Virus record (IMG/VR): IMGVR_UViG_2919380674_000001
Coordinates: 1 to 64,000 of that record
Length of the DNA stretch: 64,000 nt
Strand: one strand, 5' to 3'
DNA from: a virus
Taxonomy: Duplodnaviria; Caudoviricetes
How positions within the stretch are numbered: the first letter of the stretch is position 1; each line of letters starts with the position of its first letter. Below, piece after piece: positions 1,771 through 62,767 of this stretch. The notes under the pieces were generated by a model. The model saw nothing but the letters and a program-made list of their open reading frames with translations, was not told where the DNA came from and did not search any database. The translations under genes and the position numbers were made by a program.

Positions 1771-1897
1771 TAGACTTCCAAAGTCAGGACCGTGTTAAGA
1801 CATCAGATATTGAGGAGTTTGTCGTTCCGATGAGCATGTGATTTCCACTCAGCCTTGGCTGAGACGTATCAGAAGTTTCTACGTCCCGGAGATCAGT

Positions 1898-3514
1898 ATG
1901 CTTTCAATTAACCTTGACACTATTTCTTTTTCTTACGGTTCTCACCGTGTGTTGGATCATGTAAGCCTGCATGTTGGCGAGGGGGAACGAGCGGTACTCA
2001 TCGGACCAAATGGCTGTGGTAAGACAACTCTGCTTAAGATCATTAGGGGAGACCTCCAACCAGATTCAGGAAGGGTTGTTTCTTGCACAGCAAATCACCT
2101 CGTGCCAGATCCTGATGGTTTTGAAGGCCAAGTAGCGAAGTACTTTGATGTCGCCCTAGGACCGCTCAACGACTTGTCGGCGCGCTTTAAGCAGATCACC
2201 GTTTCCCTTGCCAACGGTGATAAGGCGCAGGAATCGGAATATGACCGGGTACTAGCGGAAATGACCGCACACGACGTATGGTCCCTCGATGCCCGAGCCG
2301 CTGAAGTACTAGCTGGTTTAGGACTGGCTGGAATTGGCATGTCGTCGGAACGTGACATGTCATCATTGTCTCCCGGCCAGCGCGCGCGTTTACGGTTGGC
2401 AGCGCTGTTACTCTTACACCCCGACGTTCTGATTCTTGATGAGCCAACCAACCATCTCGATATCGCGGCAATCGACTTCTTATCCAACACAATCAAGAAC
2501 TGGGCAGGGCCAGTGCTCCTAGCCAGTCACGATCGAGCCTTTATCGACAACATTGCGACCGTCATTTATGACATGGACGTCACCGTGTGGCGCGAACTTG
2601 CGAAGGCACAAGGTGACACGAGCGTCCAGGGTTTACACCGTAACGCCGGAAACTACTCGGACTACCTGAATGCAAAGGAGACAGCGCGAAGCAAACACCA
2701 TCAAATTCACGCTGAACAACAAACCCAGAAGCGTCACTTGCGAGTGCATCGTCAAGAGAGCATGAAGATCGCACGTGGTGGGGTCCGGCTCGAAACCGCT
2801 TCAGGGAAAGCAAAGAAATTCTACTCCGATCGAGCAGCATCAACGTCAGTTAAGCGAACACGCAATGACGATATGCGACTAGAGCGGCTCGATGAGCGCG
2901 AAGTAAGAAAACCTCGCTACTACGAATTGGAGTTCCCACACCGGCAAGGCCCCTTGACTACCGGAATCGCAGTATCAGCACGACAAGCTGGCGTGGCGCA
3001 TCGACTTACACCACTAGACCTCGATCTTTCAGTAGGGGAGCACCTGTTAGTCACAGGCGCGAACGGTTCAGGAAAGACCACGCTTTTGAACTGGATTGCC
3101 ACCGGCAAACCACCATCAGGCGCAACCGTAAGCGGGTTCTTGTCCCGAGATAGCTCCATCGGTCACGTACCTCAGCGTCTGCCTGTGGAAGAGGATCCCG
3201 GATTCGGTAGTGACATCTGGCGACATGGAATTGGAGCGATTGGCAAAGGAATCTTGCACCCATCGACGTGGTCTAGTCCCATCGCGGAGCTGTCTGCTGG
3301 AAACCAGCGCCGAGCACAGATTGCTATCGCATTAACCAACCACCCTGCACTTCTGATCATTGATGAGTCGACCAACTACCTCGACCTCGATACTATGCAA
3401 GCGCTAGAAGATACTCTACAAACATGGGAAGGAACGCTCATTATCGCGAGTCACGATCGATGGCTGATCGAACACTGGCATGGACGCAGACTTCAACTGA
3501 CGCACAGTAAATAG
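1898..3514 (+). CDS. ABC-F family ATPase, candidate ribosome-protection (antibiotic resistance) protein
   Basis: Two ABC domains (GPNGCGKT, LSPGQ, LILDEPTNHLD; GANGSGKT, LSAGN, LIIDESTNYLD), no TM segments, long basic interdomain linker; ATG at 1898 (ORF open from 1838). Confidence 0.88.
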   Translation: MLSINLDTISFSYGSHRVLDHVSLHVGEGERAVLIGPNGCGKTTLLKIIRGDLQPDSGRVVSCTANHLVPDPDGFEGQVAKYFDVALGPLNDLSARFKQITVSLANGDKAQESEYDRVLAEMTAHDVWSLDARAAEVLAGLGLAGIGMSSERDMSSLSPGQRARLRLAALLLLHPDVLILDEPTNHLDIAAIDFLSNTIKNWAGPVLLASHDRAFIDNIATVIYDMDVTVWRELAKAQGDTSVQGLHRNAGNYSDYLNAKETARSKHHQIHAEQQTQKRHLRVHRQESMKIARGGVRLETASGKAKKFYSDRAASTSVKRTRNDDMRLERLDEREVRKPRYYELEFPHRQGPLTTGIAVSARQAGVAHRLTPLDLDLSVGEHLLVTGANGSGKTTLLNWIATGKPPSGATVSGFLSRDSSIGHVPQRLPVEEDPGFGSDIWRHGIGAIGKGILHPSTWSSPIAELSAGNQRRAQIAIALTNHPALLIIDESTNYLDLDTMQALEDTLQTWEGTLIIASHDRWLIEHWHGRRLQLTHSK

Positions 3515-3986: not shown

Positions 3987-4949
3987 ATGGTAGAAGCATC
4001 TGAGATTGAGCGCGAGCTAGAGATAGCCCAAGACACGCTACAGGAGCTAGCTGGCGACGATGTGGATGCGATCGAGATAAAAAGCGTTGAGGCTGATGAG
4101 GCGCCGTTCCTCGCTCGGATCGTCAGCAAACTGAGCCCGATGGTCGGAAATCTTATGGAGCAGCGAATTGCTTCTATTCTCAATGAAGCCGCATCTGACG
4201 GGTTTGAGTGGCATCGGCAGGATCCCGGATTTCCAGACGCGGTGCTTGTCGATAGCACGTCCAGAGAGATTTTGGCAGGGTATGAGATCAAGGCTTGGTT
4301 CGTGTTGAGCACGGAGATTACTGGTCGTTTCCGCGAATCTGTGAATCTGCTTCTGGATCAAAATATCAATGTCGTGATCGTTGCTTGGTGTATGAGCAAT
4401 CTCGTTTTTGGTGAGCCTAAAGTGCTCGGAACGCTAATTGTTTCTGGTGAAGAATTGGCGCGTAGTCGCGATAGTCATTATCACAAACCTCCGCACTATC
4501 TGACGATCGAGCCCAATGATACAAGCAGTCGGACGGCAAATCTTCAGCAATCGAACGTAAATGGGTACAGATTACAGGTTGAGAAGTCTGATCCGAAGTT
4601 GCTCCAAGAGGCCTTGGATCGGGAGTTTTCTACGTCGAACCCGTGTTCTGAAGAGGCTCAAGCTGAGGCTACAGAATTGATGCGTGACCTCGAATATCGC
4701 CTCGATACGAACTTTGCGAAAATTGATCGCGTTGCAAACAAAGATGTCGAGGACTTCAAAAGGCGGATCATGAAATTGAAGTACCTAGACAAAACGATTT
4801 CGAGTTGGAAAACTGTGTTCTCAGATCTTACAAGCACTAATGATAAGAAACGGGAGAAGGCTGAAGCTACCATCATGCAGTTCTACGACTCGATGAAGGT
4901 CGAAGAACCTAAAACATCGGTTTCTGAAGAGTCTGAAGGCGCTCACTAG
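3987..4949 (+). CDS. Putative type II restriction endonuclease (PD-(D/E)xK fold)
   Basis: FPDAVLVD...GYEIKAW motif; convergent with and overlapping a DNA methyltransferase. Confidence 0.65.
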   Translation: MVEASEIERELEIAQDTLQELAGDDVDAIEIKSVEADEAPFLARIVSKLSPMVGNLMEQRIASILNEAASDGFEWHRQDPGFPDAVLVDSTSREILAGYEIKAWFVLSTEITGRFRESVNLLLDQNINVVIVAWCMSNLVFGEPKVLGTLIVSGEELARSRDSHYHKPPHYLTIEPNDTSSRTANLQQSNVNGYRLQVEKSDPKLLQEALDREFSTSNPCSEEAQAEATELMRDLEYRLDTNFAKIDRVANKDVEDFKRRIMKLKYLDKTISSWKTVFSDLTSTNDKKREKAEATIMQFYDSMKVEEPKTSVSEESEGAH

Positions 4950-5928
4950 CCATTTGGTAGAAATCATCGTTGATTTCGGCGGCCCACGGATGTCTTCCTA
5001 GCTGAAGCGCTGCTACGGAAGCGGTACAGAGTCCTCCAAACGGTTCCCAAACTGTATCTCCGGGATTGGTGCTTGCCTGGATGATACGTGTCATCAGGTC
5101 GAGCGGTTTTTGGTTCAGGTGGCTCGCACTCATTTGGGTAGGCTTACCTGCACGCGGGGCAGACTTAATGAGGCTTCCGCGATAACGCTCTCTACCTCTA
5201 AGACTTGGCCTGTCCCAAACGTTTGTTATGCCATGTTCGTAGTTCCAGGGAGATCTAGTTCCCGCCCACTCGTCCGCGGTGACCGGAGATACCCCATTCA
5301 GTGAATAGTAGGGGCGGCCAGCAGGATCGCCGTGCTCGTTTGCGTACGCAACGATTTTCATCATTGCATCGACTGGCGGGTAGTACCAAAGCCAACCTTG
5401 GTCAAAGTACTTGCGAGTGGCAGCGTTTTTCACTCCGCATGCTTCGTTCGCTAGCCGTTGGGGAAGACCAGTTCTCTTCCACTCCGACAGAAGCCATTCC
5501 TTCATATGAATATGCCCAGAACTATTATCGGATGACGAGATAAGTGGCTTGCGGGTGTAGAAAACACATACCTCTGTTACCACAGGGAAGCGACGTATCG
5601 TCTTGGAATTCACGTTACCTGCTACTTGCCCGACGCCCTTATTCCAGATATTTGTGAACTCATATTGCCAGCCGTTCTCATCGAGGACGGGATGCGCATT
5701 TGCCCAGCCGACTTCTGTGTTCCAAAACCACAATGTGGTCGCCAGAGTGGAACGCTTAGACCATTCTTCGATGTGAGGTCTGTACCAATCAGCTAGTCCG
5801 TCTGGGGTTCTAGGGTCGCCTGGAAAGCCTCCAACTCCGTACGCGCCGTCGCTGACAATAGTGTTGGGCGTTTGCCATTGACTGTAGACATCAAGGGCGT
5901 CGTTGTGGAAAAGATTAAAGTCTGTCAT
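4909..5928 (-). CDS. N4-cytosine/N6-adenine DNA methyltransferase (beta-type motif order)
   Basis: Motif IV variant IVSDGAYG near the N-terminus; HLNQKPLDL and VWEPFGGLCT (motif I) near the C-terminus. Confidence 0.85.
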   Translation of the reverse strand: MTDFNLFHNDALDVYSQWQTPNTIVSDGAYGVGGFPGDPRTPDGLADWYRPHIEEWSKRSTLATTLWFWNTEVGWANAHPVLDENGWQYEFTNIWNKGVGQVAGNVNSKTIRRFPVVTEVCVFYTRKPLISSSDNSSGHIHMKEWLLSEWKRTGLPQRLANEACGVKNAATRKYFDQGWLWYYPPVDAMMKIVAYANEHGDPAGRPYYSLNGVSPVTADEWAGTRSPWNYEHGITNVWDRPSLRGRERYRGSLIKSAPRAGKPTQMSASHLNQKPLDLMTRIIQASTNPGDTVWEPFGGLCTASVAALQLGRHPWAAEINDDFYQMASERLQTLQKPMF

Positions 5929-5973: not shown

Positions 5974-6219
5974 TCAAGTTCGGGTCTCGTTAGAGGTACT
6001 TGAGTCCCGGCGCTCAACTTGGCAAATGTCTGAGATGTTGCAATCCAGTGCTTCGCAAATCCGTAGAAGAATATCCGTGGTGACGTTGCCTCCACGTCCG
6101 AGCTTGGCGATGGTTGCTGGGCTGAGCCCTGCGAGTTCTTGGAGCTGGGTTTTGGTCATGTCACGGTCGATGAGGAGCTTCCACAGGGGTTTGTAGCTGA
6201 AGGTGGGGCTATTGGGCAT
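5974..6219 (-). CDS. Cro/C1-type (XRE) HTH transcriptional regulator
   Basis: SYKPLWKLLIDRDMTKTQLQELAGLSPATIAKLGRG...ICEALDCNISDI. Confidence 0.9.
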   Translation of the reverse strand: MPNSPTFSYKPLWKLLIDRDMTKTQLQELAGLSPATIAKLGRGGNVTTDILLRICEALDCNISDICQVERRDSSTSNETRT

Positions 6220-8083
6220 CGGGTTCCTCCGTGTCGATGATGTCCTCGTCGTGGATGTCTTCGAGGAAGCCGTAGCGGCCGTGACTTTCTTGTTTGGTGA
6301 AGTAAATCAGGTTGCAACGGGATTGCAGTTTGGTGATGTCGGGCATGTATTTGATGTTGTCGACAATGATCATCTGACCGAGATCTTGACGCTCGGTCAG
6401 GAAGTCATACAGGGCTATCGGGATGGTCTCTCGGGCTTCTTGAAGCTCGGGATCGAGCTGCGGGTCATCGAGACCAAGGAGCGGAGTGTCGATCATGAGG
6501 ACACCTGGGCTGTGCATGGCAGCCTCTGAGGCGAAGTATTCGCGCAGCGTGAGCAGCACCGCTGTGTTCACGAACGAACGGTAGCCCTTGCCTTGCTTGC
6601 TTTTCGTTTTCCCGTTGACCACGCCATCAAACAGTTCACGCGAGAACGTTGCACGGTCAAGACGCGGGAACGCACACGCCCCAAGAGTGTCGAGCAAGCC
6701 TTCGCTCATCTTTTCCCAAAACGATTCCGGGAACTCATTGGTGGCATTGAAATTACCTTTGGGGAACGTCTTAGCTTGGCGCTCAGCGATTTCTTGCTCG
6801 ATCGCTGTTTTGCGCTCGCGGAGTTCTTCCAGTTCGGTTTGCATCGCAACGACTGCATTGTTGGCGGCAATGCTGGATGCGAGGGCATGTAGTTGCGGGC
6901 GTAGCTGGTTTTCAATGTGTTCTGTAATGCGCCGGGAGTGGAAGGCTAGTTGTTGTTCTTCTGCAACGAGTGGTGCGTGTTCGGTTTCCATTTGGGTGAT
7001 CGTCTGGCGTAGCCCGTCAAGCCTGGTGAGAAGGTTTTGCCGCTCGCGCGGATCAGGTTCAGCCGCGGCAGGCGTCTTGTCTGCTGGCAGGGTTTGCTCA
7101 CAGATGGGACACGATTCAGGTGCGGGGATAGCACTGGTAAGCACGTGGCCTTCGTGAACGAAGTCGAAACGGTCGATTTTGGCTTGGTAGGAGGACGCGA
7201 GTTCTTCGTAGCGATGCCGAAGCGCGCCAGATTCGGCTAACTGGTCACGGATTTCTTGGAGCCGGGAGGCTACCTGTTCACCTTCACGTGCAGCGTTCTC
7301 AATGAGCGTGTTGACGTGTGCGACCTGTGCAGATAGTTCGTCGATAGTGCGTTGGGCTTGGTCGGGGTTGCTGGTTTCGAGGGCTGCTTCGAGGGTATCG
7401 ATGCGTTGGCGTAGCTCGTCTGGTTTTGGAGTCAGGTAGTCGATGATCGCGTTGTTTCGTAGCTTCTTGGTTTCGTTGTTCTCCTCGCGTGCGTATGCGG
7501 CGTAGTCCTTGTCGGTGATGAACGCTGCGAGCGTGCATTTAGCGGCGGTGTGTGCCGTGTTTTGCTCTGGTAGGAGGATAGGGGCTTTCTTGGTGATGTT
7601 GTCTTCGTCAGCGTAGAACGCGTGGGAAACTGTGCGCCATGTTAGGTTTTGAACGTCGTAGTTCTGGTTCTTGATGACCTTGAGTTCATCAGGATTCTCG
7701 AACCCTGCTAGGCGCAGCCACAGGGAGTTGAGTAGCGCCCTGTTTTTGGTCTTGTTGAGCCGGTATTGTCCTGATGGGATCCGTTTGTCGGTGCTCGTAA
7801 CGTCGACGATGGTGTGGCCTTGCCCGATTGGGCGTGTGAGCGTTAGTTGTCCGAACGGGGTGCGTAGCCCCATGCGTACTTCGGTGTATCCGGACTGCTC
7901 GTCGATGGCGAAATCCTTGGTGGCCGCGCCGAACATGTAGTCGATTGATTGCAAGACCCAGGATTTTCCGGTGTTTGATGGCCCGCACACGATATTGAGG
8001 CCGTCGGTGAGGTTGATGCGGGAGTCTTCGCGGGTGGGGTGTCCTGCCACCGTGATGTGAGTAATCCAAAAGCCTGGTTTCAT
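6209..8083 (-). CDS. ABC-three-component/Lamassu-like SMC/Rad50-type ATPase (LmuB-like)
   Basis: Walker A GPSNTGKS, long coiled coil with a CPIC zinc hook, C-terminal KQGKGYRS and VLMIDTP Walker B. Confidence 0.8.
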   Translation of the reverse strand: MKPGFWITHITVAGHPTREDSRINLTDGLNIVCGPSNTGKSWVLQSIDYMFGAATKDFAIDEQSGYTEVRMGLRTPFGQLTLTRPIGQGHTIVDVTSTDKRIPSGQYRLNKTKNRALLNSLWLRLAGFENPDELKVIKNQNYDVQNLTWRTVSHAFYADEDNITKKAPILLPEQNTAHTAAKCTLAAFITDKDYAAYAREENNETKKLRNNAIIDYLTPKPDELRQRIDTLEAALETSNPDQAQRTIDELSAQVAHVNTLIENAAREGEQVASRLQEIRDQLAESGALRHRYEELASSYQAKIDRFDFVHEGHVLTSAIPAPESCPICEQTLPADKTPAAAEPDPRERQNLLTRLDGLRQTITQMETEHAPLVAEEQQLAFHSRRITEHIENQLRPQLHALASSIAANNAVVAMQTELEELRERKTAIEQEIAERQAKTFPKGNFNATNEFPESFWEKMSEGLLDTLGACAFPRLDRATFSRELFDGVVNGKTKSKQGKGYRSFVNTAVLLTLREYFASEAAMHSPGVLMIDTPLLGLDDPQLDPELQEARETIPIALYDFLTERQDLGQMIIVDNIKYMPDITKLQSRCNLIYFTKQESHGRYGFLEDIHDEDIIDTEEPDAQ

Positions 8084-8526
8084 CGGGACTCTCCTGGGGT
8101 GGCTGCGGTGAGAATGAATGATGTGAGCGTGTTGGTGTCTTGGTCGTCGACACGCTCAATGGTCTCCAGCGCGGCGTTGAAAAAGTCCGTGGCGTATTGG
8201 GTGCTGAGCCGGTTAACCAGCGTGGCGCCTTCGTCACTGATGACGAAGCGTCCATGCCCGTTGTCCTGGGTGTAGTGGACGAGCCCTTGGATGGTCATGT
8301 GCTGCAAGGCTTGGGTCATGAGGTTGGTGCGGGCGTTCAGTTCGCCGGAGGCGAGCCGGTGGGTGCCGTTCACGTTCGTTTCGCCCAGACCGAAGGTGTG
8401 TGCATTGACGGTGAGCGTGTCAAGGCATGCCAAGTAGTCCACGTCGGTTGGCTCGTCGAGAAGGAATAGGAAGATCAGGGCGCGAAGCTCGGCTTCGAAG
8501 CTGGTATCGAGGGCTGAAAGTCTCAT
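8080..8526 (-). CDS. ABC-3C middle component (MC2 / LmuC-like)
   Basis: FEAELRAL...YLACLDTLTV...FGLGETNVNG...GELNAR...GLV pattern; ATGA overlaps with both neighbours. Confidence 0.75.
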   Translation of the reverse strand: MRLSALDTSFEAELRALIFLFLLDEPTDVDYLACLDTLTVNAHTFGLGETNVNGTHRLASGELNARTNLMTQALQHMTIQGLVHYTQDNGHGRFVISDEGATLVNRLSTQYATDFFNAALETIERVDDQDTNTLTSFILTAATPGESR

Positions 8527-9518
8527 GCGTCCACCCACGACAATCTGCCTTGTGCGGCCAGTTCATGACATGAGCCTTTACGACTCCACACGTCGATAAG
8601 GGTGATGATTTGATCGAGCCGCTGACGATCGAGTTGGACTTGAACAGCTTGGGCTAGGGTGGCCAGGAGCCGTTCGACACCGTTTGGGTAGGTGCGCAGG
8701 TTTGTGTCGGTGACTCCGGCGTGCATGCTGTCAAGGAACTCGTCGAACATTGCCTTGCCGTTATGGATACAGCTCCATGAGGCTTCTCGTACCCATTCGG
8801 CGCTGTAGAACGCTTTGCGTTGGTCTTGGAAATGAGCCGACCAGCGTGGCGGAATATCGTCAATCACCGGTTCTAGATTGCTGGTGGGCAATCCTTCGCA
8901 GTAGGCGTGCAGTAAGGCGGCGACGTAGATGAGTTCGTCGGGCTGAATATGTTCGGGAACGTCCTTTTTCGGTGGAAGCCCCACTGATTGATCGCCAAGG
9001 CGCAGCCGGTTGGTTTTCTCATCAATATACGGAGCAACCGACTGCGGGGCGGGTGTGGGCAGGTTGAGCGAAACCTCGAGTGGTGACGGGGCGGTGTCGC
9101 GGATAGAGACGAGGACTTCGCGGATGAGCGCACCGAGACCACGTCCAACATTGCCTTTGTTGATTCTCGCATCGATATGGTGCAACCTGTCGGCGAGTTC
9201 ATTGAGAACGGGCTCTTGATACCAGTCGAGCAGGTTCGAGGAGAATTCTTCTTCATCCCACCTTCCAGCAAGTTCACCTGCAAAGTCCGGCTTCATCGGA
9301 TACGAGCCGTTCGCATACCCCTTCCACGTGGAAACGGCACGCAGCTCGATAGCTGTCCGTTCATCACCCGTGTCAGGTGCTGGTACGAGTCCCAGGTCGA
9401 TGACGAATGCGGTGAACTCGCCAAGCTTGCGGGTGCCTTTCATCATTGGACGAAGCGCATCGACGAGTTGCGTGAAGTTATTCTTCTCGCCCAATTTCAC
9501 CTCCGCAATCGCGTTCAA
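8523..9518 (-). CDS. ABC-3C effector-position protein (CTD6-like C-terminus, LmuA-like) with an apparently non-enzymatic N-terminal domain
   Basis: C-terminal HFQDQRKAFYSAE...RKGSCHELAAQGRLSWV; first gene of the triad; likely start is TTG at 9494 after GGAGGTG. Confidence 0.72.
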   Translation of the reverse strand: MNAIAEVKLGEKNNFTQLVDALRPMMKGTRKLGEFTAFVIDLGLVPAPDTGDERTAIELRAVSTWKGYANGSYPMKPDFAGELAGRWDEEEFSSNLLDWYQEPVLNELADRLHHIDARINKGNVGRGLGALIREVLVSIRDTAPSPLEVSLNLPTPAPQSVAPYIDEKTNRLRLGDQSVGLPPKKDVPEHIQPDELIYVAALLHAYCEGLPTSNLEPVIDDIPPRWSAHFQDQRKAFYSAEWVREASWSCIHNGKAMFDEFLDSMHAGVTDTNLRTYPNGVERLLATLAQAVQVQLDRQRLDQIITLIDVWSRKGSCHELAAQGRLSWVDA

Positions 9519-9697
9519 TCGCTGTCAATCGGTTGACCATCGCCTACTCACGCGCAGATTCGTTTAATGGAAATGCAAGAGCGGAACGAGTGACAACATC
9601 CTTTCTGATTATACAGTCTCGCTTCACTCTTGGCGTGTTCATCTACGCGAACGCGTAGTCGTGTCGCAACGAGCGTGGGCAGGAGGTGAGAAGAGAC

Positions 9698-9841
9698 ATG
9701 GGTAAACGAAACATGAAGCAGACGTCTCGGCTGGTAGCCACCAAGGCATCGGCACTTCTGCGCGATGGCCGAACCTCAGCCAGGACGAAGTCCGTAGCAG
9801 GCTCCGCGCTGGCCCAAGCCAAGCCGCGTAAGGGCAAGTAA
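9698..9841 (+). CDS. 47-aa highly basic small protein (absent from the ORF track)
   Basis: MGKRNMKQTSRLVATKASALLRDGRTSARTKSVAGSALAQAKPRKGK with a strong AGGAGGTGA RBS at 9681-9689. Confidence 0.75.
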   Translation: MGKRNMKQTSRLVATKASALLRDGRTSARTKSVAGSALAQAKPRKGK

Positions 9842-10127
9842 CACCCTCGCTGGTGTTTCGCAGCGCGGTCGACAGCCGCGAAACACTCTCTCATTTTCCT
9901 TTTCGGCGATGCCGCACCGGTCAACCGGCACGCTGAAACCTTTCTCCTACTTTTCCGCATGCGCAGAGCCGTATTCGGGAAGACCACCGTTGAGCGCTTG
10001 ACGGGCACCACCTCAATCCGGGTTTAACCCGGCGGGGCTGGTGCCCGTCACTGCATCCGCTCAACATTTCGGTCTTCTCTCGGCAGTCCTCAACGGGGTC
10101 TCCCTTTACAAGAAGGGAACCCCACTC

Positions 10128-10658
10128 ATGGGATTCATTACCTATACGTCTGTTGTCGGTGATCCGATCGTTGTTGAAGCTGAGGATCGGTGGGTTGAGA
10201 TCGTCACTGATCTTGACCGGGCTGAATACAACAACGAACACGGATATCACCGTCAAGACCGTAAAGGCGTCAAGTTCTGCTCGTGGGATGCCTACAACTC
10301 CTACGGCAACCAGGAAGCCGGATCCACGCCGTCAGCCGAAGACATCGTATGCGAGAACGAAACCGCCACTGAACAAGAGCACCTTCTCCAGGCCGTTGGC
10401 GAGTTGCTGGTCGAGCTCATCAAGAAGCTGCCGCCTGCGCAGCGGGAAGTGTTCATCGCCATCCGTGTCCAACAGCGGCCTGCAGTGGAGGTGGCCGCTG
10501 CCCGTGGCGTGTCAAAAGCGGCGATCTCGAAAACGTTGAAGAAAGCCACTGAACACCTGCGTGAGGGACTGATCGCGGCAGGGGTTAACTCCAGCGATCT
10601 TCATGGCCTCCCTATGAGCGAGGCACACGGCACCGCTCAGGAAGGAACGAACAAATGA
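10128..10658 (+). CDS. Phage sigma-70 region 4 domain protein (ECF-like sigma factor)
   Basis: LIKKLPPAQREVF...EVAAARGVSKAAISKTLKKATEHLR region-4 HTH. Confidence 0.8.
   Translation: MGFITYTSVVGDPIVVEAEDRWVEIVTDLDRAEYNNEHGYHRQDRKGVKFCSWDAYNSYGNQEAGSTPSAEDIVCENETATEQEHLLQAVGELLVELIKKLPPAQREVFIAIRVQQRPAVEVAAARGVSKAAISKTLKKATEHLREGLIAAGVNSSDLHGLPMSEAHGTAQEGTNK
10581..10620 (+). promoter_or_regulatory. Phage motif A copy 1 (GGGGTTAACTC-N12-TGGCCT-N5-TGAGMG)
   Basis: Identical spacing at 10581, 16238 and 52829, each just upstream of an operon start. Confidence 0.7.
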
Positions 10659-13090: not shown

Positions 13091-15058
13091 ATGCGAACAC
13101 TCTTCTGCGATATCGAATCTTTCAGCCCCGCCCAACTCGCCAAGACAGGCGTCTACCCGTATGCCGACCACCCCGACTTCGCCCTGCTACTCTTCGGATA
13201 TTCGGTCGACGGCGGCCCGGTCGAAGTGGTGGATCTTGCCAGCGGCGAGACCCTGCCCGATGAGGTTCTCGCAGCACTGGTGGATCCGGATGTGGTCAAG
13301 TGGGCGCATAACGCCGCCTTCGAACGTGTCTGCTTGTCCGCTTGGCTACGAGCGCATCATCCAGAGCTTCTCGCTGATGGGTTTCTTGGCCCAAGGCAGT
13401 GGCGGTGCACCATGATCTGGTCGACCTACCTTGGTCTGCCGATGAGCCTCGACGCGGTTGCCACCGTCCTCAAACTCGACGTCCAAAAAGACACAGTAGG
13501 CAAGAAGCTGATAAAGCAGTTCTGCACACCCGCCACACCCTCAGTCCTGAACGGCGGCAAACGCAGGAACCCACCATCAGCTGACCCGACCGGGTGGGCG
13601 CGGTTCATCGAGTACAACCGGCGCGACGTCGAAGTCGAGCTCGCCATCCACGAGCGGCTCTCATCATTCCCGATGCCCGATGACGAGTGGGACACCTACA
13701 CGCTCGACCAACGCATTAATGATGCTGGGATTCTTCTCGACCACACGCTGGTCGATCACGCGGTTGCCGTCGACGATCATCACCGCAACGCGACACTCGC
13801 TCGGGCACAGACATTGACCGGGCTGGAGAACCCGAACTCACCCATCCAGCTGAAGGACTGGCTCACCACCCACGGCTGCCACATCGACTCACTCGCCAAG
13901 GCTGACGTCGATGCCGCCCTTGACACCGCGACCGGTGAGGTGAAAGAAGTCCTCGGACTCCGTGGTGATCTGGCGAAATCGAGCGTGAAGAAATACCAGG
14001 CGATGCACAACGTCGCAGGATCCGATGGCCGGGCGCGCGGGCTTATCCAGTTCTACGGCGCAGGACGTACCGGACGTTTCGCCGGACGCCTCGTCCAAGT
14101 CCAAAACCTCCCGAGGAACTATCTGCCTGATCTCGACCAAGCACGAACCTTGGTCAGAGTGGGTGATCTTGATGCGCTTGAGCTGCTGTATGACTCCGTG
14201 CCCGACACTCTCTCGCAGTTGATCCGCACCGCCTTCATCCCTAGTACCGGCAATCGGTTTATTGTCGCGGACTTCTCTGCAATCGAGGCGCGCGTGATTG
14301 CCTGGCTCGCAGGAGAAACCACCACCCTCCAGGCCTTCCGTGAGGGCAAAGACCTCTACTGCGAAACCGCCTCCCGCATGTTCGGCGTCCCAGTAGAAAA
14401 ACACGGCATCAACGCCGAGCTTCGCCAGAAGGGGAAGATTGCGGTGCTCGCCTGTGGTTATGGCGGCTCTGTTGGTGCGCTGAAAGCTATGGGTGCCCTG
14501 CACATGGGACTCGCCGAGCATGAGCTCAAACCGGTCGTCGATGCCTGGCGGCAAGCTAATCCACATACTGTGCAGCTCTGGGCCGACGTTGAAGAAGCCG
14601 TGATTGCCGCGATCTCGTCGCGCCAGCCGATTCGACTACGGAATCTGCGCTTTAGTGTTGAGTCTGGGATTCTCTTCATCGAACTACCATCCGGTAGACG
14701 GTTGGCGTATGTGCAGCCGCGTCTGGGCGAGAACCGTTGGGGCGGTACCTCCATCACCTACACCGGCACCACCACTGCACGGCGCTGGGGACAACTCGAA
14801 ACCTACGGTGGAAAACTCGTCGAGAATATCGTCCAGGCGATCGCTCGTGACCTGCTCGTCACTGGCATGCACGCAGTCGCCAAGGCGGGGCATCGGATTG
14901 TGATGCATGTTCATGACGAAATCGTCATCGATGAACCCACAAACTCGGACTTCACCGTCGCCGATGCGTGTGAGTTAATGTCCACGCTCCCAGCATGGGC
15001 GGAAGGCCTTCCGCTGGATGCGGATGGGTATGAGTGTGCCTATTACCGCAAGGATTAA
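13091..15058 (+). CDS. Phage family A DNA polymerase
   Basis: 3'-5' exonuclease DIES, motif A DFSAIEAR, motif B RQKGKIAVLACGYG, motif C HVHDE. Confidence 0.93.
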   Translation: MRTLFCDIESFSPAQLAKTGVYPYADHPDFALLLFGYSVDGGPVEVVDLASGETLPDEVLAALVDPDVVKWAHNAAFERVCLSAWLRAHHPELLADGFLGPRQWRCTMIWSTYLGLPMSLDAVATVLKLDVQKDTVGKKLIKQFCTPATPSVLNGGKRRNPPSADPTGWARFIEYNRRDVEVELAIHERLSSFPMPDDEWDTYTLDQRINDAGILLDHTLVDHAVAVDDHHRNATLARAQTLTGLENPNSPIQLKDWLTTHGCHIDSLAKADVDAALDTATGEVKEVLGLRGDLAKSSVKKYQAMHNVAGSDGRARGLIQFYGAGRTGRFAGRLVQVQNLPRNYLPDLDQARTLVRVGDLDALELLYDSVPDTLSQLIRTAFIPSTGNRFIVADFSAIEARVIAWLAGETTTLQAFREGKDLYCETASRMFGVPVEKHGINAELRQKGKIAVLACGYGGSVGALKAMGALHMGLAEHELKPVVDAWRQANPHTVQLWADVEEAVIAAISSRQPIRLRNLRFSVESGILFIELPSGRRLAYVQPRLGENRWGGTSITYTGTTTARRWGQLETYGGKLVENIVQAIARDLLVTGMHAVAKAGHRIVMHVHDEIVIDEPTNSDFTVADACELMSTLPAWAEGLPLDADGYECAYYRKD

Positions 15059-15813
15059 ATCTTTGGATCTTCGCGATGGATTGGCTCAGGAGACAGCCCA
15101 AGGTGCTGGTTTGACGGGTTGAGCATGCTTGCGAGGTTTGCGAGCGATCCGTCCTCTAGAAGCGCCGGGTTCTTGACCATCTCGATAATTAGAGCTTGCA
15201 ACTGCTCAGAAGGAATCTGCGAGAGTGCTTGTTCAATTTCTGCGTAATCTTCAACCTCGACGATTCGCGCGGATTTGACCATGCGTAGTTGTTCGTCGCT
15301 ATACGCCTTTGCTGCAAGCCCAGCGATAATCCGTGCCATTGCTTCTTGGCGGGACATGATCTGTCGTTGATCCAGTTCGATGGCGGCGTGTTCATCGCGT
15401 GCTGGATTTAGCACCTGTGTCTCGGGCTCGTCAGACTTCTTCTTTCTTCCGATGCTCCGGATCCATTTCGCCTGACGGTTCACAGCAGGTCGCGCCGTTT
15501 CTTGCCACCATTGTTTGACGTGAGGAGCCGCCTTGGCTATCCCTGCCACCGTAACTGCGACAATAAGTTCACCGATAACTTCGGCGAGCTCATTGGATTC
15601 TTCAGATTCGCGGCGATGGTCAGAGGTGACGAATGTGTTCTCATACGAGTATTCGTCTGCCGGATTCAAGCGATCTTCATCGGGTACGAATCGGGCGTGA
15701 CCGGACAATACTCGATCTTCGTTGTATAGGTTCTGATGAAGCGAACCATCGATTCTGTGTCCAGGGTTGCCAACTGTCTCATCCCACTCGTAGTAGCCGT
15801 AGATCCTTCCCAT
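15055..15813 (-). CDS. Antisense moron, hypothetical protein with one hydrophobic segment
   Basis: 252-aa ORF filling the gap after polA on the opposite strand. Confidence 0.7.
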   Translation of the reverse strand: MGRIYGYYEWDETVGNPGHRIDGSLHQNLYNEDRVLSGHARFVPDEDRLNPADEYSYENTFVTSDHRRESEESNELAEVIGELIVAVTVAGIAKAAPHVKQWWQETARPAVNRQAKWIRSIGRKKKSDEPETQVLNPARDEHAAIELDQRQIMSRQEAMARIIAGLAAKAYSDEQLRMVKSARIVEVEDYAEIEQALSQIPSEQLQALIIEMVKNPALLEDGSLANLASMLNPSNQHLGLSPEPIHREDPKI

Positions 15814-15906
15814 GACGCAATTCTAGTTTCGTATCGGACGAGAGACATCTCTATCTCCAAGGCGAGTTGACGAACACGCCCTGTGATGGAACTAGCCAGC
15901 GCGCTT

Positions 15907-16089
15907 CTACTGTTCGTCAAGGATAATGCTCGGGTCGGTTTCCATGAACTCTCGCAGATACGCGGCTATCTGTTGGTTTACAGCACTCGGTGCTGGGTCA
16001 TTGTTGAGGTCGCGCAGGTATTCCATGAAGGCGAATAGCCGCATGTTTTTCGCCATCGCCCACACCGTGGCTTTATCCATCTCACCCAT
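15907..16089 (-). CDS. Small hypothetical protein (60 aa)
   Basis: AGGAG RBS before MGEMDKATVWAMAKN... Confidence 0.5.
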   Translation of the reverse strand: MGEMDKATVWAMAKNMRLFAFMEYLRDLNNDPAPSAVNQQIAAYLREFMETDPSIILDEQ

Positions 16090-16163
16090 ATCTCCTGCTC
16101 GCCCGCGCTGCACTGTTTGTCTGCAGGGTATACCCGGCATCTCGGGAAGCAATTTTCATGACA

Positions 16164-16277
16164 CCCGTCCGGATTAGGTGGTGCTCGAGGGCGTATGTGC
16201 GAGAGCCCCAAAGCTCAGTGACCACAAACCCATCCTGGGGGTTAACTCCTTGAAGGTTTGTGGCCTACCACTGAGAG
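16164..16277 (+). promoter_or_regulatory. Tandem phage motifs B (16164-16197) and A (16238-16277)
   Basis: CCCGTCCGGATT-N11-GAGGGCGTATG followed by GGGGTTAACTC-N12-TGGCCT-N5-TGAGAG; the same tandem recurs at 52767-52868. Confidence 0.7.
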
Positions 16278-16336
16278 TCGCTCGCACCAATCGGTGCACC
16301 TTTCGTCTATTTGGCTCTCAGAACAGGAGCCTTGTT

Positions 16337-17119
16337 ATGGGAAACACCATTCAAACCTTTACCAATGACCGTTTTGGGCAGGTACGTAGCTTCGCCGCCG
16401 ATGATCAGACGTGGTTCATCGCCGCCGATATCTGCCAAGCCCTCGAGCTAACGAACCCATCGGTTGCTGTCTCGCGTCTCGACGATGATGAGAAGGCTAA
16501 GTTCAACTTAGGGTTCTCCGGCGGTGCCACATGGTGCGTCAACGAACCCGGCCTTTACGGGCTGATCATGGCATCACGCAAACCAGAAGCCCGAGCATTC
16601 AAGCGTTGGGTCACCCACGAGGTGCTGCCATCGATCCGCCACCGTGGCCTGTATGCCACTGATGAGCTGGTCACTAATCCTGAAGCGCTCCTCAAAGTGC
16701 TTGATGCCTACGTCGCGGAGCGCCGCAAAACCGCAGAGCTCACGTTGCAGAATCTTGCGCAAGCTCAAGCCTTGGCTGAAGCGAAACCGAAACTGTCCTA
16801 CTACGACATGGTACTCAAAGCCAAGGACGCTCTTCCGATAACGGTGATTGCGAAGGATTATGGGCTTTCTGGTCGCAAGCTCAACCAGCTCCTGCACAAA
16901 CTCGGTATCCAGTACAAGCAATCGGGCGTGTGGCTGCTCTACGCCCAGCACGCTGGCAACGGTTACACCGACACCAAAACTCATGTCATTGACGACGGTA
17001 ATCGCACCCGGATTCACACCTACTGGACACAGAAAGGCCGCTTGTTCATCTACGAGGCTCTCAAGAACCAGCTCAGCATTCTGCCGGTCATTGAGCGTGA
17101 GGGCCAGGTGCAAGCATGA
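16337..17119 (+). CDS. Phage antirepressor (Bro-N plus ANT/KilAC)
   Basis: FGQVRS...VNEPGLY...FKRWVTHEVLPSIR; IAKDYG...WTQKGRLF. Confidence 0.92.
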   Translation: MGNTIQTFTNDRFGQVRSFAADDQTWFIAADICQALELTNPSVAVSRLDDDEKAKFNLGFSGGATWCVNEPGLYGLIMASRKPEARAFKRWVTHEVLPSIRHRGLYATDELVTNPEALLKVLDAYVAERRKTAELTLQNLAQAQALAEAKPKLSYYDMVLKAKDALPITVIAKDYGLSGRKLNQLLHKLGIQYKQSGVWLLYAQHAGNGYTDTKTHVIDDGNRTRIHTYWTQKGRLFIYEALKNQLSILPVIEREGQVQA

Positions 17120-22787: not shown

Positions 22788-23636
22788 CTATCCGATGGTG
22801 GTTAGTGCGTGTTGCCGGTATTCGTTTGGGGTCATCCCTCCGAGCCGTTCTTGTATACGCCCAGTGTTGTACCACTGTATGTACTCGTCAATCGCTGCGC
22901 GTAGCTCGCTGATGGAAACGAATGAGTCATTGTTGAACATTTCTTCTTTCAAGTGAGAAAAGAAGTTCTCCATCACGGAGTTATCGTAACAATTGCCCTT
23001 ACGGCTCATGGATTGAACGCACTGATGCTCAACTAGCTGACTGATCCATGACTGGTGCTGATAGTGATAACCCTGATCAGTATGAACAAGAACACCTTCA
23101 GGATCACCCGCTACACGAAAAGCCTTTTTCAGGCTCAACGCGGACACTTTCGTTGTAGGAGACACCGAAAGAGTGTGAGCAAGAATCGAATGATCACACA
23201 AATCCATCACCGGAGACAAATACAGCTTCTGTCCCGAGATCTGGAACTGGGTAATATCGGAGACCCATTGTTGATTCGGCTTTTCCGTGGCAAACCGCCG
23301 ATCTAAATGATTATCAGCCCGACGTGACGTTGTACCGCGGTAAGAGTTGTAACACTTACGCTTCCTCGTTTTAGAGCGTAAACCGAGCTGCCTCATCAAC
23401 TTAGCAACAAGCTTGCGCGACACACACCACCCATCGCGCAGCAGCTGAAGCCGCACACGGCGATAACCATAACGCTGATGGCTTTTATCGAAAATCTTCC
23501 GAATCGCCTGTTTCAACTTCACATGCCGGTCCTGAGCCTGCATCTGCCCCAGCTGATAATAGAATGTCGATCGCGCCAGATTGGCTACCTGTAACAGTAC
23601 CGGCAACGGGTATTCAGATCTGACAGTGGCAACCAC
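22788..23636 (-). CDS. IS3 transposase OrfB (DDE)
   Basis: WVSDIT, HTDQG, CYDNSVMENFF. Confidence 0.93.
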   Translation of the reverse strand: MVATVRSEYPLPVLLQVANLARSTFYYQLGQMQAQDRHVKLKQAIRKIFDKSHQRYGYRRVRLQLLRDGWCVSRKLVAKLMRQLGLRSKTRKRKCYNSYRGTTSRRADNHLDRRFATEKPNQQWVSDITQFQISGQKLYLSPVMDLCDHSILAHTLSVSPTTKVSALSLKKAFRVAGDPEGVLVHTDQGYHYQHQSWISQLVEHQCVQSMSRKGNCYDNSVMENFFSHLKEEMFNNDSFVSISELRAAIDEYIQWYNTGRIQERLGGMTPNEYRQHALTTIG

Positions 23637-23644
23637 ACGGGTTT

Positions 23645-24145
23645 TCAGCCTTGCCCCTGCTCCCTCAGATCTCGTAATTTTTTCAAATACGCTACCTCTG
23701 CTTTTAACCTCGTATTCTCCTCAATCAACGCAGCATCCGGAACCATCGCGCGCCTCTCGGGATCAGGGCTAGCGATTAACGTTTTCGGCTTCCTGCCACG
23801 CCTTTTCGGGCGTAAGCCCTCATCGCCAGCTAAACGCCACACCCGCACCCAGGAATACACGATATCAACCGAAGAAAAATTGAACTCTGCCGCCAGCTGC
23901 GTCGCGGTCTCGCCAGCAAGAAAGCGAGCAACAATCGAGCGCTTGAACTCCCACGAGTAAACAGCTTTCGTATCACGTGCCACAAGCGCCATTCTCCCAT
24001 GGAGAGCCCACCTGTCATAAAGAAGATTCACCGGCCGAAACGGCAACCCAAGTTTTCTCGCTGTGGCTCGAGAGCCATACCCCGCCTCAAACGAATCAAC
24101 AGCCGCCGCTCGCTGCTCCACCGACAACGAACTATCAGGACGCAT
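23645..24145 (-). CDS. IS3 transposase OrfA (HTH)
   Basis: HTH repeats and the EVAYLKKL end; an A6 run at 23678-23683 is a candidate -1 frameshift site. Confidence 0.88.
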   Translation of the reverse strand: MRPDSSLSVEQRAAAVDSFEAGYGSRATARKLGLPFRPVNLLYDRWALHGRMALVARDTKAVYSWEFKRSIVARFLAGETATQLAAEFNFSSVDIVYSWVRVWRLAGDEGLRPKRRGRKPKTLIASPDPERRAMVPDAALIEENTRLKAEVAYLKKLRDLREQGQG

Positions 24146-24276
24146 AACACCCCCAACCCTAAAACTGAACAAATAAACATCCAACTTTCAGGGTTCAGTA
24201 CAACCTTTCAAGTTTCGTTGGCAGTTCTGCAAAGAGGCGAAGTGCCGTCAAGTTTTTCTCAGATTTCCTTTTCGTG

Positions 24277-28594: not shown

Positions 28595-28735
28595 TTATTT
28601 TTCGTCGTCTTCGTCTTTATTGAAGATGATCTCGTAGATCAGGCCGATAAGGAAGCCAATACCTACACATAGAGCGATGTTGTCCAAAAGGACACCAATC
28701 GCAGTTCCCATAATCAGGCCAATCCCGATCCCCAT
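28595..28735 (-). CDS. 46-aa glycine-zipper membrane peptide
   Basis: MGIGIGLIMGTAIGVLLDNIALCVGIGFLIGLI with a GGAGGAG RBS. Confidence 0.6.
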   Translation of the reverse strand: MGIGIGLIMGTAIGVLLDNIALCVGIGFLIGLIYEIIFNKDEDDEK

Positions 28736-28817
28736 TGATTCTCCTCCCCGTATTGACGCCGCTACGTCATCTAGTATCTCCCAAATATTTGTCCGCCCAT
28801 GGAAAGTGAGTGTGTGT

Positions 28818-30008
28818 ATGTCTATCACGAAGAGTGCTGAGGCTGTGTGTATTGGCCATCCCGATAAGCTCTGCGACAGAATCGCTGACACGATCCTTGA
28901 CGATATTCTCTACGAAGACCCCGCCGCCCGCGTCGCTGTCGAGGTCATGGCATCTGGCCACAAGATTATCGTGACCGGTGAGATCACAACGAAGGTACGT
29001 CCGCGTATTCGTGAATCGGTGCGCTACGCGTTGGTGGAGGCTGGTTATGTGCCGTGGAAGTTCCTTGTCTTCGTTTTCACTCGCCGCCAGTCCCCAGACA
29101 TCAACGCAGGAGTCACCCGATCGCTCGAGGCGCGCTTTGGTGATGATACCGAGTTCGCGTTGCAGGGTGCTGGCGATCAAGGAACGGTTTACGGTTACGC
29201 CACTGCTGAGACTCCTGAGCGTTTACCGTTGCCGCTTGTTTTGTCGCATGAGATTTGTCGCCGTCTTGATAATGCTCGTAAGGATGGCACTATTACTGGT
29301 ATTAAGTCTGATGGTAAGGCGCAGGTGACAGTTCGTTATGACGACGCTGGTAGGCCAGTTGCAATCGAGACCGTTGTGGTGTCGATCCAACACGATAAAA
29401 CCAAGGATCTGGATGAGCTCGCGGCTGAGGTGAAAACCCTGATCGTCGCACCTGCCTGTAAGCCGTACCTGCCGGTCAGCGCTGACACCGAGATTCTGGT
29501 GAATCCGTCGGGTGTGTTTACGGTGGGTGGGCCGAAAGCCGACACTGGCCTAACGGGTCGCAAGCTCATGGTTGATACTTATGGTGGGCTTGCCCCACAT
29601 GGTGGTGGGGCGTTCTCGGGTAAGGATGCTTCGAAGGTTGACCGGTCGGCTGCATATATGGCGCGCCTGATCGCTAAAACCATCGTCGATGCAGGTCTTG
29701 CTCGCGAGTGTCAGGTGAGTATTAGTTTTGCGATTGGGAAGGCTGACCCGGTTGCTTTCAGTGTTGACACTCTCGGCACGGGTGAGTACTCCGACGAGAT
29801 ACTCACGGCTGCAGCTTCCGAGGTGTTCTCGTTGCGTCCTGGTGGGATTATTGATGTTTTGAATCTTCGTAGACCTTGTTATGTCAGGTGTTCAAGTTAT
29901 GGGCATTTCGGTCGTGTTGGTTTGCCTTGGGAGAACTCGTTTGTTTATGTTGACGTGCTAGTAAAGGCGGTGAAGAAGCATGCTCATGAAAACGATGCCA
30001 ATCGCTGA
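28818..30008 (+). CDS. metK: Phage-encoded S-adenosylmethionine synthetase
   Basis: GHPDK, GAGDQG, DTGLTGRK, GGGAFSGKD. Confidence 0.95.
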   Translation: MSITKSAEAVCIGHPDKLCDRIADTILDDILYEDPAARVAVEVMASGHKIIVTGEITTKVRPRIRESVRYALVEAGYVPWKFLVFVFTRRQSPDINAGVTRSLEARFGDDTEFALQGAGDQGTVYGYATAETPERLPLPLVLSHEICRRLDNARKDGTITGIKSDGKAQVTVRYDDAGRPVAIETVVVSIQHDKTKDLDELAAEVKTLIVAPACKPYLPVSADTEILVNPSGVFTVGGPKADTGLTGRKLMVDTYGGLAPHGGGAFSGKDASKVDRSAAYMARLIAKTIVDAGLARECQVSISFAIGKADPVAFSVDTLGTGEYSDEILTAAASEVFSLRPGGIIDVLNLRRPCYVRCSSYGHFGRVGLPWENSFVYVDVLVKAVKKHAHENDANR

Positions 30009-43141: not shown

Positions 43142-43335
43142 TCGAAACCGACAATGCCGTGTTCACGCGGCTGACATATATCGGCATGGCTCACCTTCAC
43201 CTATCGCGGGTGGAGGTGGGCTTAACCGTGTTTGGGGAACTCTTGGATCTGGTCGACTGCTGGCGACTCGAAACCGGCAGAGCCCAACCGCTACGTCAAT
43301 GGTTCATCGACGACGTGATTCCTGCCGGGATCTAG
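43114..43335 (+). CDS. Tail chaperone -1 frameshift extension (T; absent from the ORF track)
   Basis: Slippery C-CCA-AAA at 43114-43120; the -1 frame is open to ...FTRLTYIG...IDDVIPAGI* at 43335. Confidence 0.75.
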   Translation, partial: PKSTSSGRIVETDNAVFTRLTYIGMAHLHLSRVEVGLTVFGELLDLVDCWRLETGRAQPLRQWFIDDVIPAGI

Positions 43336-43949
43336 ATACTATTCCAGTGGGCTTTTAGTTCGTGAGCGAATTGTGTGGGCATTGATTGATGCCATTGATG
43401 ACCCGCGTCTGGCACAACGATGAGGCGGGCTGGTGGGATCTGTTGGCTGATGGTGCGGGCGGCAGGAAGATTCGCGCGGTCTTTCACACCGCACGCAATC
43501 GTTGTTGGAACCGTGATATTTCCAAGCTCTGGCTCGAAATCAATGGCTGATATTTGACGCAGGATTTCCAGCAACTGTTGCTTGGAAATCTATGGTGGGC
43601 ACACGAGACGCTCAGGCAAGACTCGCATGAGAACGCTTTGAATGCGCATCAATGCTTTAGGCGGGCGTGCTTGAGGAGCTGAAAGAAACAGGGAGCGAAC
43701 CATGTGCGGGTGCCGAATTGCCAGATCAAGACCCATAACCGCGCCAAGAGATAGCCCAACCACGTCGACTGGATCATTCAGTGACGCGGCGAGTTCGTCC
43801 GTGCGCTCATGTAACGACCATGGCGTTCCTGATGGCTGATCGACAACAGTGGGCGTGAGCGCGTCAATGCTCTCGAACTCGTTGATGACGCCATTCCAGG
43901 CTTGCGGGGTCTCGCCGAGTCCGTGGAGGAAAAGTACCGGAGTGCTCAT
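43332..43949 (-). pseudogene. Alpha/beta hydrolase interrupted by one in-frame TAG
   Basis: FLHGLG, GLSLG nucleophile elbow, GVKD, AGH; TAG at 43590-43592 is in frame with both halves. Confidence 0.82.
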
Positions 43950-62763: not shown

Positions 62764-62767
62764 CGCC

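Follow-up and report, generated by a model that had tools for sequence, protein, structure and literature searches.

The 64,000-nucleotide stretch of viral DNA analysed here (positions 1 to 64,000 of IMG/VR record IMGVR_UViG_2919380674_000001, hereafter the window) carries, in the left arm of a siphovirus-like prophage, four translationally coupled genes that are read from the minus strand and diverge from the early operon of the phage (Table 1). In the order of transcription, they encode a protein ending in a C-terminal domain (CTD) of class CTD6, a middle component of type MC2, a zinc-hook ATPase and a small helix-turn-helix (HTH) regulator of the XRE type, HTH_26; a type II restriction-modification (RM) cassette follows. 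This organization, on which open reading frame (ORF) calling, Pfam, PADLOC and the gene overlaps agree, had been described in an initial annotation, which went on to propose that a Lamassu-like defence sensor had been repurposed as a RecA-independent lysis-lysogeny switch acting through a tethered transcription factor, with a defence system carrying a new effector as the alternative. The locus has the look of a layered defence island, not of a new lysis-lysogeny switch.

By their order, domain matches and motifs, the first three genes are a true short Lamassu, i.e. an ABC-3C system composed of LmuA with its CTD6 domain, LmuC and LmuB. The Lamassu identity given by the initial annotation is thereby upheld: PADLOC matches LmuA at 4.7e-47 (PDLC03857, residues 14-330) and LmuB at 8.4e-155 (residues 4-611), in addition to LmuC, and each of the three matches over its full length. 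Judging from its match, LmuA is already modelled by PADLOC, and at full length. LmuC is encoded between LmuA and LmuB, and the CTD of LmuA is the part expected to dock on LmuB/LmuC. LmuB displays a Walker A motif (GPSNTGKS, residues 34-41), a CxxC hook (CPIC, 325-328) and a Walker B-like motif (VLMIDT, 528-533); by its residues, the latter is a Walker B of the short-Lamassu type, defined as hhhhD[QSTE] in section 5 of PMC12663957. Among solved chains, LmuB finds a marginal match (E 0.0023) to 9hqu_A, named DUF3732 domain-containing protein. Both the CTD6 class and the MC2 class fall within the diverged sub-family named in 10.1101/2025.03.14.643221.

The three Lamassu genes are joined by ATGA overlaps at both the lmuA/lmuC and lmuC/lmuB junctions, the likely start of lmuC being ATG 8526, which overlaps the lmuA stop. 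The start of the HTH_26 gene overlaps the lmuB stop by 11 nt and is preceded by GGAGGA. The ORF of lmuA extends further upstream than its likely start, which is placed at TTG 9494 because homologues are 322-323 aa long and a GGAGG lies 5 nt ahead of this TTG.

Table 1. Features of the Lamassu-HTH_26 operon, the RM cassette and the adjoining early region (positions of the window; SD, Shine-Dalgarno sequence)
Feature	Position	Strand	Description
lmuA	8523..9518	-	N-terminal uncharacterised all-helical domain + CTD6; ORF from TTG 9518
lmuA likely start	TTG 9494	-	323 aa product; GGAGG at 9500-9504
LmuA N-domain	9069..9491	-	Residues about 10-150; predicted eight helices, acidic, no known fold
LmuA CTD6 domain	8535..8936	-	Residues 195-328; Pfam PF20282 1.6e-25
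lmuC (MC2 middle component)	8080..8538	-	Pfam MC2 2.5e-22; PADLOC LmuC 8.8e-25
lmuB, Rad50/SMC-like ABC ATPase	6209..8083	-	Pfam AAA_15/AAA_23; PADLOC LmuB PDLC03867
HTH_26 (XRE-type) small regulator, 81 aa	5974..6219	-	Pfam HTH_26 5.4e-18
Type II DNA methyltransferase (N6_N4)	4909..5928	-	43-46 nt downstream of HTH_26
Type II restriction endonuclease	3987..4949	+	PADLOC REase_II PDLC03583 6.3e-48; convergent with methylase, 41-nt overlap
Divergent control region	9495..9697		75-83% identical in L001-L003
Conserved 47-aa basic protein	9698-9841	+	13 K+R, 1 D+E; SD GGAGG; first rightward gene
Sigma-70 region-4-like protein	10041-10658	+	First large gene of early operon

The part of LmuA that occupies the effector position is its N-terminal domain (hereafter, the N-domain). 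An AlphaFold model of LmuA made with 29 homologues gives residues 13-142 a predicted confidence (pLDDT) of about 88, the CTD being poorly modelled, and the N-domain modelled alone reaches a pLDDT of 89.7 and a predicted template modelling score (pTM) of 0.83, with eight helices. In these models, the N-domain (~140 aa) is a confidently folded, all-helical domain; its composition is acidic (16 K+R vs 22 D+E). It belongs to no Pfam or NCBIfam family, and the initial annotation had recognised no nuclease, protease or TIR motif in this region. Its model has no fold match in the PDB by Foldseek or VIA, and sequence and profile searches against PDB chains are equally without match. Fold searches with the model of full-length LmuA return low-confidence helical matches only, and a search of the ESM Atlas returns unnamed clusters and the protein's own CTD6 cluster only. 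In BFVD, three uncharacterised phage proteins match the N-domain with template modelling (TM) scores of 0.69-0.78.

The same region had been suggested to contain, in STWKGYANGSYPM, a segment resembling an XRE recognition helix. This resemblance is not borne out, as the N-domain shows no relation to XRE HTHs by sequence or profile. Indeed, hhalign gives a probability of 0.2% for its relation to the HTH_26 of the same operon, the top matches listed by the PDB fold searches include no HTH protein, no HTH family is detected by Pfam at E up to 0.01, and the domain is acidic. The structure prediction recommended at the outset has delivered a confident fold that has no PDB match.

A profile search with the N-domain over 1.84 billion representatives gave 73 matches at E up to 0.001, 59 of which were scanned with Pfam. 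Among the latter, the domain accompanies CTD6 in nine proteins, CTD11 in eleven and NACHT in two (one of them 759 aa long, with SNaCT14); single cases are a chimera with the C-terminal half of HTH_26, an Mrr_cat_2 protein with a partial N-domain and a false positive (insect allergen repeat), and 34 have no Pfam family. Many matches are stand-alone proteins of 140-250 aa made of the N-domain alone. In viral contigs, the domain also occurs on short proteins that adjoin an AAA_13 ATPase (L092; PADLOC candidate PDC-S06) or a superfamily 1 helicase (L039; PADLOC candidate PDC-S53). Judged from the proteins and neighbours in which it occurs, the N-domain is distributed as a modular effector, or adaptor, of conflict systems would be. 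In protein P0066 (229 aa), the N-domain is joined directly to the C-terminal half of HTH_26; this protein apparently arose through loss of the CTD, lmuC, lmuB and the 5' end of the HTH gene.

The fourth gene of the operon encodes a protein that consists of an HTH only and lies directly upstream of, and co-directional with, the methylase gene, a position typical of RM controller proteins. No terminator-like site was found between both genes, and the methylase is probably co-transcribed with HTH_26. Ten loci with HTH_26 or a remnant were inspected closely (the window, L001-L004, L009, L010 and L017-L019), and in each of them a methylase gene or fragment comes next. The most likely role of HTH_26, as far as gene neighbourhoods can tell, is that of a controller (C-protein-like) of the RM cassette, outside the Lamassu machine. 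Such a role fits HTH_26 best because it accompanies RM cassettes of many types and at many positions, the classical controller-then-R order among them.

A genome scan seeded with LmuA identified ten close loci in Actinomyces, Brevibacterium, Mobiluncus, Varibaculum, Bifidobacterium and Alloscardovia. HTH_26 follows lmuB in five of them (L001-L004, L010) and a remnant does so in L009; its identity in those loci, 66-76%, is above that of LmuA, LmuB and LmuC. The methylase gene found after the HTH in these six loci belongs to a type III system in four cases, to type II (D12 + HNH) in one and to type I in one. The four other loci (L005-L008) have no HTH. The Lamassu genes of L007 are followed by BrxA and those of L008 are located between BrxC and a PglX-like methylase; from these neighbours, the LmuA loci L007 and L008 sit inside chromosomal BREX clusters, where neither phage genes nor HTH were found. 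In three of the four HTH-less loci (L005, L007 and L008; Bifidobacterium), a DUF4417 gene is located divergently upstream of lmuA, and L008 has an EndoU nuclease and an ApeA-like gene nearby.

The bacterial genome that harbours the prophage includes two sister prophages (L017, 215000-232000; L018, 1120000-1135000) in which an ABC-3C operon of another class, with CTD11 and DUF2326, lies beside the sigma-like early gene; of the two, only L017 has a confirmed MC7 middle component. In both sister operons, the first protein has the N-domain (PADLOC LmuA positions 1-136 and 1-147; 4e-8 and 7.7e-5), and each operon is followed by HTH_26, then by a type III RM system in L017 and by type I methylase fragments in L018. 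The same layout is found in G048, a genome of another genus. The fourth HTH_26 of the genome (L019), just right of the window, heads a type III Mod-Res pair plus Gabija, with no ABC-3C upstream. The possibility that L019 is a remnant left by deletion of an ATPase was rejected, since sequence shared with the other copies extends only about 15 nt beyond the HTH start on the upstream side.

Viral contigs extend this picture. A scan seeded with an HTH_26 alignment gave 76 loci, 44 of which had a qualifying upstream gene (same strand, at least 80 aa, adjacent); 57 downstream genes were tested as well. Upstream genes encode ABC-3C ATPases in 27 of the 44 cases (9 of LmuB type, 18 of DUF2326 type). 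By local profile searches, 31 loci have an ABC ATPase; in L089 and L090 it is located far downstream of the HTH, so that 29 have one nearby; the 23 ATPase loci that also carry the N-domain are all within these 29. Downstream genes (n=57) encode DNA methylases of many kinds in 23 cases, tyrosine integrases in 5, SNF2-type helicases in 4, UvrD-PDDEXK proteins in 3 and proteins of no family in 17, with single cases of BrxA, DUF499, an ICEA restriction enzyme, HhH-GPD and Schlafen. Fifteen contigs (L021-23, L025, L027, L028, L030, L038, L039, L043, L044, L050, L057, L061 and L064) have the layout of the window, in which genes for a single-stranded DNA-binding protein (SSB), an exonuclease and a p137 homologue diverge from an N-domain gene followed by NTPase, HTH and RM genes. 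Gene calls are longest-ORF heuristics, and the borders of IMG/VR prophages often cut the left arm.

HTH_26 also occurs in other surroundings. It lies between a head-completion gene and an EcoRI-type methylase in L080 and L081, and directly precedes an NgoFVII-type restriction enzyme in L121 and L144. L054 (2718-4196) encodes, immediately behind a free-standing HTH_26, another copy that is fused to the N-terminus of a C5 methylase. A 622-aa protein is encoded divergently from HTH_26 and the NgoFVII-type enzyme in L121 (6583-8451) and L144 (6511-8379); the L121 copy has a weak CapP-like match in PADLOC (3.1e-6), and neither copy has a Pfam match. This match hints at a possible protease partner for some HTH_26 proteins.

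In a less biased scan with the exonuclease as seed, 80 of at least 548 loci were kept, and 31 of those have at least 5.9 kb upstream. Among those 31, HTH_26 was found in 9 (one weak), the N-domain in 2 and the ATPase in 2; the three closest contigs (L098, L099, L101) carry the module. The slot is occupied by genes for HTH_3 and Peptidase_M78 proteins, i.e. an ImmR/ImmA-like pair, in L127 and L153, the former also having HTH_26 further down the strand, and by a WYL regulator gene in L174. A viral-contig search with the sigma-like protein alone gave no match; its alignment was too poor for use. The synteny survey called for by the initial annotation upholds its point: in this actinobacterial phage lineage, two sister prophages and many viral contigs carry ABC-3C, HTH_26 and RM genes in this slot, where more distant relatives carry ImmR/ImmA, and this synteny is real and the most interesting part of the original proposal.

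The block is probably a prophage-borne layered defence island, in which a Lamassu with an uncharacterised effector is combined with an RM cassette controlled by HTH_26. This is the alternative that the initial annotation had itself stated, and it is the best-supported reading given an N-domain that is modular and also found embedded in BREX clusters. In a lysogen, a leftward promoter located in 9495-9697 would probably drive lmuA, lmuC, lmuB, HTH_26 and the methylase gene as one transcript. LmuB2-LmuC would hold LmuA through CTD6 and, by analogy with known systems, the complex would release LmuA once it senses the DNA ends or replication intermediates that an invading phage or plasmid presents. 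Release and oligomerisation are shown for Cap4 Lamassu in PMC12663957 and 10.1101/2025.03.14.643221, and, by analogy, LmuA may behave likewise here. The released N-domain would be a putative toxic effector of non-enzymatic appearance, switched on by clustering. Restriction would then act as the first layer and Lamassu as the back-up. By position, the block takes the place beside the early promoter that ImmR/ImmA occupy in more distant relatives. Since the N-domain is common to other defence-type NTPases and present in BREX islands, the most economical view is a defence effector that release or clustering activates. Lamassu family systems have already been reported in prophages, including actinobacterial ones, in 10.1101/2022.05.11.491447 and PMC10023795; in literature listings on Lamassu with prophage, repressor and lysogeny, and in the passages of the papers cited here, no report of a regulatory role was found.

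Several points weigh against this defence-island reading. No catalytic signature is recognised in the N-domain, to which no toxic activity or target can be assigned, and it has no transmembrane or hydrophobic segment (highest 19-residue hydropathy, 0.93). No enriched gapped palindrome (C-box or operator) was found in 91 distinct HTH_26 upstream regions, compared by a crude method. HTH_26 overlaps the stop of the ATPase gene in both the CTD6 and CTD11 classes, an overlap that is tighter than that of a chance neighbour and couples it translationally to two different ATPase clades, and with four types of NTPase the same trio of N-domain protein, NTPase and HTH_26 is encountered. Furthermore, many of the loci are kin, so that the counts are non-independent and overstate independence. 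Finally, as the scanned ORFs of the prophage yielded no other repressor, HTH_26 could equally act as the repressor of the phage, whether in addition to a controller role or in place of it.

If HTH_26 were the lysogeny repressor, Lamassu and RM would be morons on its transcript, immunity would need the HTH only and the antirepressor Ant would give induction. This scenario is unlikely, even if several facts speak for it. The leftward operon encodes no classical HTH other than HTH_26 and, as the initial annotation had reported, neither an S24 nor an M78/ImmA-type protease is encoded by the 47 window ORFs scanned with Pfam (about nine small ORFs of the structural region lie outside the scan), and no repressor is named among 38 ORFs scanned with PHROGs. 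An Ant gene is present, distant HTH_26 proteins directly precede a tyrosine integrase in L066, L069, L083, L086 and L096, the HTH of L068 lies 1.5 kb from early genes with no ABC-3C, and relatives have ImmR/ImmA in the slot. However, immunity repressors diversify, whereas three of the four HTH_26 copies in this genome have an identical recognition helix (SPATIAKLGRG/D in the alignment) and the helix hardly varies across genera, a conservation that speaks against phage-specific immunity. Moreover, L127 carries both ImmR/ImmA and HTH_26 on one strand, and L080 and L081 have HTH_26 and a methylase inside structural modules. Nor does HTH_26, an HTH only, resemble a cleavable or protease-partnered repressor of the CI/ImmR type, the 47 scanned window ORFs having shown no S24 or M78 domain.

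The switch originally proposed is very improbable, most evidence being against it. The Lamassu call, the position beside the early operon and the lack of an enzyme signature stand, but a repurposed switch with a tethered transcription factor is not supported: there is no HTH signal in the N-domain, which is also found on NACHT proteins, on a second CTD class and beside PDC-S06 and PDC-S53; the BREX loci have neither phage genes nor HTH; and HTH_26 widely heads RM cassettes without any ABC-3C. A modified version, in which ABC-3C senses DNA ends and the freed N-domain inactivates or sequesters HTH_26, thereby derepressing RM and defence genes or the prophage in functional analogy to ImmA/ImmR or CapP/CapH, would account for the module taking the position of ImmR/ImmA, for an N-domain without enzyme signature, for its co-occurrence with HTH_26 across CTD6 ABC-3C, CTD11 ABC-3C, PDC-S06 and PDC-S53 partners, and for the 622-aa protein with a weak CapP-like match that is divergent from HTH_26 in L121 and L144. 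It is nevertheless highly doubtful, as N-domain systems exist without HTH_26 (L005-L008) and on NACHT proteins, and HTH_26 is widespread without the N-domain (9 against 2 of the 31 loci in the exonuclease-seeded sample). Equally hard to credit is its extension to a whole lineage of serine-integrase temperate phages, in which an NTPase sensor (ABC-3C, PDC-S06 or PDC-S53) with N-domain and HTH_26 would have replaced ImmR/ImmA and would gate RM or prophage transcription without RecA. If true, DNA ends or foreign DNA would be read by a defence sensor whose N-domain would then act on HTH_26.

The N-domain could also be an adaptor that recruits an unlinked effector of the host or phage without being toxic itself, in the manner of the effector-associated domains (EADs) described for other conflict systems. 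Its small size, helical and non-catalytic nature, its N-terminal location on NACHT and ABC-3C proteins and the many stand-alone 140-250 aa N-domain proteins would suit such a function; on the other hand, the loci examined contain no second N-domain protein fused to an enzyme, and neither the N-domain nor its scanned relatives have a Pfam EAD or Death-like match. An adaptor therefore seems a poor bet. The presence of the N-domain in Lamassu-type and NACHT-type proteins and beside two candidate defence NTPases makes it a clear target in the search for a new infection-stopping mechanism. A three-layer arrangement (ABC-3C, small HTH, RM) recurs, fixed at one slot in a widespread temperate phage family, and the system suits two questions, namely whether restriction and Lamassu cooperate and whether a small HTH is a general regulator of phage-borne RM cassettes.

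The control region between the divergent operons includes a -10-like sequence, TGTATAAT, on the minus strand (9608-9615), from which a promoter is tentatively assigned, and a palindrome, CTACGCG-AA-CGCGTAG (9643-9658), that is not conserved in L001-L003 or L021. The 47-aa basic protein is encoded in a 522-bp gap and its gene has its own terminator-like hairpin (9853-9886). Related protein clusters number 308, from Actinomycetota and Bacillota, and those listed include none with a functional name; the protein could be a Cro-like or other early regulator.

The prophage extends from about 10 kb to 56.4 kb of the window, in a 2.03-Mb single-contig genome with housekeeping genes just left of the window. 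Its gene order is sigma-like protein, exonuclease, Gp2.5-like SSB and PolA; Ant and primase-helicase; terminase, portal, capsid and tail; holin and endolysin; and two large serine recombinases. The left arm is made of the Lamassu-HTH-RM block, an ABC-F gene and a recombinase fragment; that it is phage DNA is supported by a third prophage with the identical order of flank, recombinase fragment, RM, HTH, ABC-3C and sigma-like gene. An apparent second copy of the locus at 2.01-2.03 Mb was rejected: C1:2010808-2033041 repeats window 1-22230 at 99.96%, and this 22.2-kb repeat most likely reflects a circular assembly whose overlapping ends were left untrimmed, so that the locus only looks duplicated.

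Several other genes deserve mention. The ABC-F ATPase of the left arm (1838-3514, plus strand) resembles ribosomal-protection ABC-F proteins, below the NCBIfam cut-off (286 vs 380 bits). At 15055-17119, a minus-strand 252-aa ORF of no family diverges from an 83-aa ORF and the Ant gene (16178-17119; Bro-N + KilAC); positions 15058-16765 have no counterpart in the sister prophage at 1.13 Mb, and 15055-17119 may be a second regulatory or moron locus. Transposase genes of insertion sequences (22788-24184, 32773-33852) and an alpha/beta-hydrolase gene split in two ORFs in the tail region (43332-44000, minus strand) are present, and the prophage may be partly decayed. Genes for S-adenosylmethionine synthetase, a ParB-methylase fusion and a second DNA methylase succeed each other at 28677-32738 and may form a self-protection or anti-restriction module. 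To the right of the prophage integrases, in a region covering 57036-63970 of the window and 269-2403 of L019, are Gabija genes (GajB, 57036-58163; GajA, 58160-59794) and a type III RM system (Res, 59791-62781; Mod from 62768), beyond which are serine recombinases of another prophage in reverse orientation.

Compared with the short (type II) Lamassu or DdmABC systems, such as LmuA(Cap4)-LmuC-LmuB of Vibrio cholerae, the operon has the same A-C-B order, small middle component, CTD tethering the effector, and Rad50-like LmuB of about 600 aa with Walker A and short-type Walker B. It differs from them in an effector that is neither Cap4 nor any named domain, in the single CxxC hook of LmuB, in a fourth gene, HTH_26, that overlaps lmuB, and in the RM cassette that follows. 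Lamassu subtypes of this sort bear the name Lamassu-Hypothetical. Repressor-protease pairs of the ImmR/ImmA and CapH/CapP kind fill the equivalent slot of relatives L127 and L153, but no M78 protease was detected here among the scanned window ORFs and the functional analogy is speculative. In lambda, rexAB ride with cI, defence genes being expressed together with the prophage repressor; here too, defence genes would be co-transcribed from a lysogenic promoter beside the immunity region, although they precede the HTH, whose repressor role is only putative.

RM controller (C) proteins are small XRE-type HTH proteins whose classical gene order is C then R and whose operator is the C-box. HTH_26 shares with them its size, its HTH type and its place just ahead of an R or M gene on the same strand, including the C-then-R order of L121 and L144 and the fusion to a C5 methylase in L054. 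Unlike them, one conserved HTH subfamily serves type I, II and III RM systems and BREX-like modules, shows no identified C-box in the 91 upstream regions, as far as a crude comparison goes, and is, here, coupled translationally to an upstream ATPase gene. The last comparison is with the ABC-3C system CTD11-MC7-DUF2326 (PADLOC candidate PDC-M68) of the two sister prophages and G048. Although it has another CTD, another middle component and an ATPase of another clade, this system has the same N-domain, is followed by HTH_26 and RM genes, and occupies the same slot beside the sigma-like early gene.

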